From a virus (taxonomy: Duplodnaviria > Heunggongvirae > Uroviricota > Caudoviricetes), in IMG/VR virus record IMGVR_UViG_2690315827_000001: DNA of 50,852 nt. One strand, given 5' to 3'. Made by a program: the position numbers. Below, one piece after another: positions 27,001 through 30,000 of the stretch. Positions within the stretch are counted from its first letter, which is position 1, and every line of letters begins with the position of its first letter.

Positions 27001-30000
27001 GCCGCTGCGACAAAATCATCCACATCTTTCACCAGCCGATCCCTCCGTTCGACGATCTCACGGTAATATTCAGAGCTGTGACTGCGCATACGGGCCACCA
27101 GCAGAGGCGGCATTGCCTTTTCGATCGCCGGTAACAGAGCCTGCATTTTTTCAACAGCATCAGGGGTGTCTTTATCCAGCCAACGGAAAATTTTCTGGGT
27201 ATTACGAGCCAGGGCTTCCGGATGGCTGTCGTCGTACAGTTCCGGGAACGTCATCCCCAGTTCGAAATAAGTCCGGGCTATTTCAGCTGCAGGAACTTTC
27301 TCACCATCAGGATATGCCCAGGCATTCATCGCCATGCGGATGTGCTCATGTTTGATTTTCATGAATCATTTGCCTCTTGATGCTTCGGGTATGATCGTTT
27401 TCGTCATTTGGTTGCTTCATCGACATATTCTGCGAATAACATGACGAGCGTCGTAAGTATGTCCAATCAACATCAGGACGAAGTTCTTCACACAGGACAC
27501 CACCTTTTGTTGCTCGTTCAATCGCAGGACATCTCTCAGCAGGCAACTGACGTACACCTTTGATCCATTGATTTACGCTTGGAGGAGATACACCTAAAAG
27601 CCTAGCCATTGCTGATTGCCCACCGACAACAGCACAAGCTCGTTTGAATGAATAGTTATCTTTTTTCATCGAATGAACTCCAAAAAACACACAATAATAT
27701 TAGGCTTAGCCTAATGCAATTGTCAATAGGCTATGCCTAACGCTTCGAGAGTAGGCATTGCCTAATGCGATGCGCATAGGAGACTATTAAGCAATGCTTA
27801 GTGGTAAAGACTTAGGCCGAGCGATAGAGCAGGCCATTAACAAAAAAATTGCATCAGGAGCCGTCAAATCAAAGGCGGAAATCGCACGTCATTTCAAAGT
27901 CCAACCACCATCAATCCATGACTGGATTAAGAAAGGTTCGATAAGTAAAGACAAACTTCCAGAACTATGGCGTTTCTTTTCTGATGTGGTTGGTCCAGAG
28001 CATTGGGGGCTTAACGAATACCCCATACCAACCCCATCCACTTCAGATACAAAAAGTGAACTTTTAGACATAAACAGCCTTTATCAAGCCGCCTCTGATG
28101 AAAAAAGAGCAATTGTGGCTTTCCTCTTATCTGGAAATGCTACGGAGCCTAGTTGGGTTGATCATGACGTTCGTGCCTACATTGCCGCAATGGAAATGAA
28201 GGTAGCTAACTATCTGAAAAATCAAGAATCAAAACGGAAAAGCCAGAACATCACCAAGACAGGAACTTAAACTTATATGGTCCGACGGGAAATTCCTAGT
28301 TCCCGTTAGTTAACTCCTACTACCTCTCCCACAAACCATCACCTATTAGGTCGCACCCAAATCATTAGGCGTAGCCTATTGACAAGCAATTAGGCATTTC
28401 CTATAGTTTTCCCATACCAACCCATCCCGTCCCACACAATACAGGGCAATACCTAGAGTTACCCGGCAGTGGTCAGGGATTAAGTAGCCAGCCCGAGGCG
28501 TAAGAACATGACGGCAGGGTTCAACTTTAACTATGCAGCAGGTTTTTGTTCCGCTACCCCGGCGTTAAGGGGATATGAGGTCAGCATGGATACTCTTGAT
28601 CTTGGCAACAACGAATCTCTGGTGTGCGGCGTGTTTCCCAACCAGGACGGCACGTTCACCGCGATGACGTATACCAAAAGCAAAACGTTTAAAACCGAAT
28701 CTGGCGCGCGTCGCTGGTTAGCAAGAAACTCTGACTAATGAAATCTGGTAATTAAGGAATCCTCCACGGGGGGAGAGTGGTGCACACGCGCCGGACACAA
28801 GCAAGCATCCGGCATGCTCTTTAACAATCTGGATATCCATAACAGTAAAAATCTACAGATTGCCGTTCAGTTTTCTGGCCAACTCTTCAATAGATGGAGG
28901 TGATACGTAATCCGGATTTTTATTCATAAGAAACTGATTTTCACAGTACAGGCACCTGCTTTTATGAAAAAATTCATATTCTCTAACCGGGAATGGCTGA
29001 AGTATCGATACTATCTTTTGTCCAAAACATTTTGGACAAAGATGCATGATTATGCTGCCGCCGTTCACGGTTACCTCCTTCGAGTACACAAAAGTTCCCG
29101 ACTCAAGTTGGCTAAGGATATAACCTTCCGTCTGAGCCTCAAAGTTTTCAAATTCTGCAATTTTAGCTTTGAGAGAAGCATTTATTTCTTGATAAGTGCC
29201 CACCAGCTCAACGAGAGACACGCATTCGCGCTGAATAGATGCAAGCTTTGAGTTCAGTTCACCAATAGCCGCATTTACTTCAGCTTGAGTTTTTGCCTCG
29301 TTCATTAGTTTTGCAATCTGGGCGGTTTCACGAATAGCCGTCATTGCTGCCGTTAATTCAGCGATCACATTCAATACTCTTATTGTTGTTGGGGATATCC
29401 AGATTAACAAGATCCTTGTTGTTGGGGAATAACGGGGACCACCTCGCCTGACGTGGTAAAAAGCAGGCACACAACACGAAAGCACACGGCGAGGGACACC
29501 ATTAAATGGTGGCTTAAGCAATCACGCGAAGCGCAATCTGCCATTATGACCGATGAAATCCCGTTAGATGATGCACTGTTACAATTGCGGGAATTTATCG
29601 ACGAAAACTCCGGTGAATTTTTTGTTCAGGTCTGGGGAAATGGAGCCAACTTCGACAACACGATTTTGCGCCGTTCATACGAACGGCAGGGGATCCCCTG
29701 CCCGTGGCGTTACTACAACGATCGCGATGTACGCACAATCGTTGAGCTGGGGAAAGCCATAGACTTCGATGCCAGAACGGCTATTCCATTCGAAGGTGAG
29801 CGCCATAATGCACTTGATGACGCCCGTTACCAGGCAAAATACGTTTCAGTTATCTGGCAAAAACTGATCCCGAGTCAGGCTGATTTTTAATGTTCAACCG
29901 TCGCCAGTTGTCGTTGATATTCTGCAACTGGCGCGTTCCGGAGTGATAGCCATGAGCGAACAGTACCTGATAACGCTCGACGAGTGGAAACCAAAACGGT

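Follow-up and report, generated by a model that had tools for sequence, protein, structure and literature searches.

The best-described relative of the gene considered here is Rip1 ('ring interacting pore 1'), a single-protein antiphage defence carried by prophages. In a review (PMC13434031) that summarises Patel et al. 2026 (Nature 651:1060), together with a conference report and a passing citation, Rip1 is presented as a protein that is non-toxic by itself, with an amphipathic N-terminal part and a C-terminal half that touches the ring of a phage small terminase or portal: 12 Rip1 monomers assemble around the 11-mer ring of the small terminase, and the resulting complex acts as a pore through which liposomes lose dye and cells are perforated, with late infection aborted before progeny mature. 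According to these sources, escaper phages carry portal mutations in Pseudomonas phages and small terminase mutations in coliphages, and the review places the original Rip1 gene just upstream of the large terminase gene. A structure of HK446 Rip1 with the T6 small terminase is deposited as PDB 9oox. The family and its mechanism were thus already published in 2026; here we add a member, encoded in a stretch of 50,852 nucleotides (IMG/VR virus record IMGVR_UViG_2690315827_000001, Caudoviricetes; hereafter the window) that constitutes a lambdoid prophage with its early-left operon on the + strand. We consider it likely that this rip1-like gene belongs to the Rip1 family, is expressed from a sieB-type promoter of its own and guards the lysogen against superinfection.

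A preliminary description of this DNA had noticed a gene of ~170 codons running opposite to its neighbours, and the gene proves to be an intact open reading frame (ORF) for 171 amino acids (28853-29368), oriented against DUF1391, the exonuclease remnant, xis and int. Its product is identical to RefSeq WP_000559928.1 (O157:H7 EDL933), annotated as a hypothetical protein. The preliminary description had likewise called the function unknown, suggesting profile and structure prediction of the product. That verdict is now outdated: both kinds of prediction point to Rip1, a solved and characterised homologue. An AlphaFold2 model computed from an alignment of 25 diverse family members (mean predicted local distance difference test score 86.2) shows two long helices, spanning residues 2-79, followed by a beta-rich domain that bears the cysteines. 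Searched with Foldseek against the PDB, this model has as its top match 9oox_M, HK446 Rip1 (E 5.8e-6, probability 1.0, 28% identity; template-modelling score 0.73 when normalised to the Rip1 target), and chains M and L (E 9.3e-6) of 9oox are the only significant matches, all others lying at E > 0.6. Sequence comparison leads to the same protein: the family profile, run against PDB sequences, matches Rip1 chain 9oox_L with E 1.6e-23, aligning profile positions 6-151 to residues 16-160 of 164; BLASTP against HK446 gp37 gives 27% identity over 150 amino acids (E 5e-13); and hhalign of the 25-member family against the HK446, HK620 and JBD30 homologues returns a probability of 99.8% (E 3.4e-28) across 147 columns. 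In these alignments C111, C114, C139 and C142 of the window protein correspond to C121, C124, C148 and C151 of HK446 Rip1.

The long N-terminal helices and the four-cysteine zinc-ribbon domain agree with the coiled coil and paired cysteine motifs that had first been noticed, except that the motif reads CPKC-x24-CLYC and not CPKC-x22-CLYC. All four cysteines are among the nine positions that are invariant in the alignment of 25 diverse members, and the full-length ORF carries every family-invariant residue. Translation would begin at a GTG, with a Shine-Dalgarno sequence, AAGAG (29377-29381), eight bases before it; an alternative reading of 222 amino acids from a TTG start was discarded, since homologues keep the N-terminus MIAELxAAM of the 171-residue form. 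In PHROGs the protein matches phrog_1244 (E 1e-57), a family of unknown function, and a large protein collection yielded 109 relatives, of which the complete ones mostly span 150-175 amino acids; those with names are all 'hypothetical', the source names shown all belong to Enterobacterales, and no relative matches a Pfam domain. The family extends from E. coli to Edwardsiella and Arsenophonus. A literature search on hkaP, WP_000559928 and phrog_1244 returned nothing relevant.

Comparison with HK446 Rip1 covers more than sequence. The two proteins are of similar size (171 against 164 amino acids), both place N-terminal helices and a beta hairpin before CxxC...CxxC, they are homologous from end to end with a matching predicted fold, and each is encoded by a single prophage-borne gene antisense to its neighbours. 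With both HK446 and HK620 the window shares the early-left slot and a homologous promoter-leader before the gene. In contrast to HK446 Rip1, the window protein falls in phrog_1244, an Enterobacterales subfamily of its own whose C-terminal tail is longer, and its gene sits after DUF1391 in an immunity region of the RacR/Qin type, whereas HK446 Rip1 and HK620 hkaP lie antisense within the early-left operon between N and cIII. The hkaP product of HK620, a homologue of 164 amino acids with a leader of the type found in HK446 and P22, is ~29% identical, and its label 'putative superinfection exclusion protein' was given by position only. By tblastn, hkaP is matched with E 1e-12, HK629 and HK630 are also linked, and the Mu-like Pseudomonas phages JBD30, DMS3, MP38 and D3112 are reached at 30% identity (E 2e-11); in the latter the homologue is antisense and directly precedes the large terminase gene, separating it from its upstream neighbour, which is the position given for the original Rip1. 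Salmonella and Citrobacter members are antisense beside cro or cI.

We next consider how the gene may be expressed. A block of ~105 nt upstream of it is better conserved than the protein, in Salmonella (protein 70% identical), Citrobacter (59%) and a dozen other genera, and it is kept even before HK446 Rip1 and HK620 hkaP, where protein identity falls to ~27%. By blastn against phage genomes the block finds the P22 region annotated 'sieB: promoter', for which the record gives a promoter at 29690-29720, with sieB RNA starting at 29727 and the ATG following at 29758. In the alignment a conserved upstream element, present as a single copy in the window, lies before the P22 sieB promoter, and the proximal copy of a direct repeat begins at the mapped P22 start; a leader of ~30 nt is therefore predicted. 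An alternative sigma-70 promoter was sought in the leader by eye and none was settled on, so the promoter assignment rests on homology to P22. The direct repeats had been reported as two 15-bp copies at 29382 and 29416; they are real and conserved, but measure 13 nt (TTGTTGTTGGGGA) and occupy 29383-29395 and 29416-29428, at 33 nt spacing. With up to 2 mismatches allowed, the repeat pattern occurs 4 times in the window where chance alone would give 0.27, and only the copies at 29383 and 29416 match it closely (0 and 1 mismatch). These repeats are conserved features of a sieB-type promoter-leader. A scan of 28600-29800 with Rfam in E-value mode returned only chance microRNA and long non-coding RNA matches, with no family covering the leader; as to what the leader might be, no result supports a C4/IsrK-type antisense RNA, a riboswitch or a CsrA site, each of which was weighed.

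The segment 28816-29476, which holds gene and leader, is 93.6% identical in PhiR29-type phages (megablast against phages), where it lies antisense right after cI in the unrelated CPS-53/PhiR29 backbone, a distribution that supports the earlier proposal of a moron, that is, a self-contained accessory cassette. Its left boundary is formed by a 3' flank, GGATATCCAGATTGTTAAAGAGC, behind which most relatives have a canonical intrinsic terminator; in the window, homology to the PhiR29-type cassette stops after GAGC and a short hairpin (AGCATCCGGCATGCT) comes next. A perfect 13-nt inverted repeat (GGATATCCAGATT / AATCTGGATATCC, at 28826-28838 and 29393-29405) flanks the gene, with one copy between the −10 and +1 positions and the other just past the stop codon, and both copies are kept across genera. 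Pairing of the two copies as an interaction between the mRNA ends was considered and set aside, as relatives show no compensatory changes between them.

Membership of the Rip1 family makes it very probable that the gene is an anti-phage gene, in keeping with the suggestion that its site might house one. In the mechanism that we propose, the gene would be on in the lysogen, read from its own sieB-type promoter (about 29400-29476, − strand) while the early-left operon on the opposite strand is repressed, and its product would shield the lysogen population from superinfecting phages. By analogy with Rip1, we infer that the window protein senses a ring, oligomerises, forms a pore and so protects: the C-terminal half would bind the ring of a small terminase or portal, and the N-terminal helices would form the killing pore. 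On induction of its own prophage, early-left transcription would probably damp the gene, which is placed antisense to it.

Several observations weigh against this interpretation. Identity to the characterised Rip1 proteins is only 27-30%, and the trigger, or even the effector step, could therefore differ. Pfam, PADLOC and NCBIfam have no model for the family, and scans with them brought up nothing but sub-threshold coiled-coil noise. The hydrophobic moment of residues 5-25 (0.44, against 0.42 in HK446 Rip1) is reached by 153 of 500 shuffled sequences. At the −10 position the window has GTTAAT (29403-29408), weaker than the perfect TATAAT of several relatives (L141, L175, L176, L178, L191, L202 and L206), and expression in O157 is a prediction only; a generic promoter and terminator scan of 28400-29950 found nothing at threshold, neither the hairpin nor a sigma-70 promoter.

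The foremost alternative is that a Rip1-like fold here does another job: exclusion of the SieB kind, defence with another trigger or effector, or regulation of the prophage by a zinc ribbon that binds nucleic acids. The slot and the promoter are indeed of the sieB type, hkaP was annotated as putative superinfection exclusion on position alone, identity to the tested Rip1 proteins is low, and zinc ribbons often bind nucleic acids. SieB of P22 and lambda (PF14163) is made from the prophage and aborts superinfecting phages, and it shares with the window gene the early-left slot, the antisense orientation and a homologous promoter-leader. The window protein, by contrast, has no BLASTP alignment to P22 SieB at E ≤ 100 and no PF14163 match, and while the sampled SieB-type cargo is hydrophobic near its N-terminus, the window protein nowhere reaches the hydrophobicity of a transmembrane segment. 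The sieB-type leader and slot show shared regulation and location, not membership of a protein family. Because Rip1 homology covers both domains end to end, and the family scans match no DNA-binding family, we regard a different job as unlikely.

Less likely again is that the gene is an inert passenger of a decaying prophage, one that merely happens to be intact and has ceased to be expressed or of use. The loss of 2.9 kb beside it, the weak −10 box and the deletion of most of the gene in one relative, OkiPb01712, would fit such a view. Against it stand the full-length ORF with its invariant residues, the sparing of the promoter-leader by the neighbouring deletion and the conservation of the family from E. 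coli to Edwardsiella and Arsenophonus; moreover, the locus (27700-30300, comprising the ORF and the promoter block) is 100% identical in each of the O157:H7 genomes listed, in a set of 267 genomes that cover it to at least 80%.

The proposal that the exonuclease was cut short by the antisense moron inserting itself can be dismissed, for although the gene adjoins the truncated ORF and the break is only 125 nt upstream of the gene start, E. coli M8 and 2013C-3181 have the same cassette in this slot with dicB, DUF1482 and a full-length exonuclease all intact, a single deletion of 2,919 bp, its junction marked by 2 nt of microhomology, sets the window apart from M8, and the break falls outside the cassette, whose boundary shared with an unrelated backbone is 29476.

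The exonuclease was cut by a later, illegitimate deletion of 2.9 kb, unrelated to the gene's arrival. When the locus is aligned to related prophages, as the preliminary description had advised, the cassette is found 99.4% identical in M8 (L007) and 97.6% identical in 2013C-3181 (L008), in the same slot directly after DUF1391, and there the order is cassette, ~0.5 kb, dicB, the DUF1482 gene, an intact exonuclease of 812-823 amino acids, xis and int; since the same cassette stands beside an intact exonuclease, its insertion did not truncate that gene. By blastn, window 28413-29494 corresponds to L007 3595-4679 and window 29493-29899 to L007 7599-8005, so that the window is without L007 4680-7598, or 2,919 bp, whose ends have only GG in common. 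The left end of the deletion lies 17 nt outside the conserved promoter block of the cassette, leaving the promoter-leader untouched. Gone with the missing segment are DicF (Rfam RF00039, 70.5 bits), dicB, the DUF1482 gene (ydfD-like) and ~680 exonuclease codons (the 5' ~2 kb); the O157 prophage is therefore without the Qin-type cell-division inhibition module.

That the exonuclease ORF lacks its Exo I motif had been seen from the sequence, and this much is right: the ORF covers positions 47-177 of the 177 of the Pfam Rv2179c-like family (PF16473, DEDDh), with the Exo I end missing. The loss is far larger than one motif, however, as comparison with phrog_2082 aligns only positions 685-823 of 823, and RefSeq flags the ORF as a pseudogene without its N-terminus. 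The ORF as called mechanically (29453-29890) is a chimera, in which the first 13-14 codons are flank of the rip1 cassette and exonuclease homology begins at 29493. From 29493 onward the window is 99.9% identical (megablast against phages) to the C-terminal end of a gene annotated 'exodeoxyribonuclease VIII', which in vB_EcoS-640R1 encodes 813 amino acids, with the same xis, int and potC coming after it.

The converse event is found in OkiPb01712 (L010), which has lost window 28761-29331, most of the rip1-like gene, and has kept DicB and the exonuclease. The pattern is that of ordinary prophage decay, with illegitimate deletions around a retained cassette. At L010 4001-4159, OkiPb01712 still has the promoter-leader, but of the rip1-like gene only the first 37 nt remain, the deletion there showing 4-nt microhomology; this prophage also carries a RelBE pair after its repressor. 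Coordinates of the features discussed are collected in Table 1.

Table 1. Features of the rip1-like locus and its surroundings, in window coordinates.
Feature	Position	Strand	Remarks
Replication genes, YdaT-like gene, YdaS/cro-like gene	25377-27690	-	
racR-type repressor	27794-28270	+	
DUF1391 gene	28586-28738	+	
Short hairpin AGCATCCGGCATGCT	28804-28818	.	Cassette/backbone boundary; position of the terminator in relatives; read from sequence
Conserved 3' flank GGATATCCAGATTGTTAAAGAGC	28816-28852	-	Left cassette boundary; conserved downstream of the gene in several genera
rip1-like coding sequence	28853-29368	-	171 amino acids, GTG start; from ORF, translation and RefSeq
Predicted 5' untranslated region	29369-29396	-	Shine-Dalgarno AAGAG (29377-29381) and proximal repeat; start near 29396 by alignment to P22 sieB
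Proximal repeat copy	29383-29395	-	CCCCAACAACAA on the gene strand
−10-like region, GTTAAT / TAATCT	29401-29408	-	Between the repeats; lies opposite the −10 end of the sieB promoter annotated in P22
Distal repeat copy	29416-29428	-	Over the −35/spacer region
Conserved upstream element, GCCTG..CCACnTCAGGC..GGTGG	29439-29476	-	Interleaved inverted repeats; 5' end of the leader, right cassette boundary
Exonuclease pseudogene	29489-29890	+	C-terminal ~133 codons of a 3'-5' exonuclease of 812-823 amino acids; outside the defence cassette
Deletion junction	about 29493-29495	.	2-nt GG microhomology; from blastn coordinates and junction sequences
xis	29943-30221	+	
int	30190-31308	+	

In E. coli O157:H7 the prophage occupies a site between potB and potC, lying beside potC in EDL933. 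In the window (31309-33209) int is directly followed by espK (31848-33209), a type III secretion system effector gene, whereas in most O157 genomes espK is at the other prophage end by potB and int abuts potC; only one listed genome, NCCP 13914, covers the int-espK joint at 100%. On this account the window looks like a tandem or circularly permuted prophage copy spanning attP.

The leader is not confined to rip1-like genes. We scanned a viral contig collection for the upstream element, finding it in at least 120 contigs, and took as cargo the first ORF of at least 60 amino acids behind it; the following counts refer to the contigs listed. The element precedes at least 28 unrelated protein clusters, among them SieB at 10 loci (PF14163, E 1.5e-25), SfIV gp36-like proteins at 13 loci and Rip1 types at 10 loci, in three subtypes, together with many proteins of 60-190 amino acids that have no Pfam match. 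At 107 of 118 loci the element is preceded by genes of the opposite strand. One further cargo, c39 of L199 (IMGVR_UViG_2675903675_000003), is a protein of 136 amino acids in which a coiled coil precedes CxxC...CxxC; BLASTP leaves it outside the Rip1 cluster, to which it aligns weakly, and it might represent a fourth type of Rip1 at a greater distance. A lone copy of the element lies by ydfC in vB_EcoS-640R1 (L002 646-677), with no obvious cargo ORF in the expected direction, and may be the remnant of a lost cassette.

Two forms of leader occur, a long one with the start codon ~100 nt from the element and a short one with ~68 nt. Among 72 unique long leaders, 62 contain a direct repeat of 8 nt or more whose copies are spaced by 32-35 nt, as do only 2% of shuffled sequences; at least five repeat sequences are in use (CCCCAACAACAA, CCCCTACAG, TTCCACAGTCAA, CCCCAATGCAA and CCCCCACAA), and while the sequence varies by lineage, the two copies within a leader, 33-34 nt apart, always match. 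In short leaders the element ends in GGTGGTATnCT and a hairpin comes next, the 3' arm of which extends into the Shine-Dalgarno sequence; its stem was seen in at least 12 different versions with compensating changes, and a perfect inverted repeat of at least 6 nt is present in 60 of 71 sequences against 14% of shuffles. The stems of the element itself are almost invariant, with two compensatory, two wobble and three disruptive variants in a scan that left stem 1 free to vary; these variants are too few to distinguish an RNA structure from a protein-binding palindrome.

In P22, translation of sieB is reported to be switched by sas, an antisense RNA of 105 nt. The conserved block of P22 measures 106 nt from the element to the ATG, and it is tempting to see in it the template of sas. 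We put forward only tentatively that the leader is a structured unit by which early-left antisense transcription switches off an abortive-infection cargo during the phage's own lytic growth, and that it may generalise sas; the upstream repeat, shown in a loop, would find the identical repeat at the mRNA 5' end. It is similarly no better than a possibility, and one that we hold with some doubt, that a portable sieB-type leader of ~70-105 nt marks a hypervariable cargo slot in the temperate phages of Enterobacterales. A leader with paired repeats and such diverse cargo goes beyond the descriptions that we found in the literature.

The rip1-like cassette was found in 655 of 5,426 complete E. coli genomes (~12%), in which a 'hypothetical protein' thereby gains a specific and testable function. 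The presence of the locus in every listed O157:H7 genome bears on phage therapy and on phage-based typing or biocontrol of O157. The comparison with related prophages also corrects the evolutionary reading of this region, where the prophage decays by deletion while the defence cassette stays. Were the portable leader to prove real, its element could serve as a search handle for new prophage defence genes, and a leader common to so many cargos raises the question of how abortive-infection genes are silenced when the prophage that carries them is itself induced.

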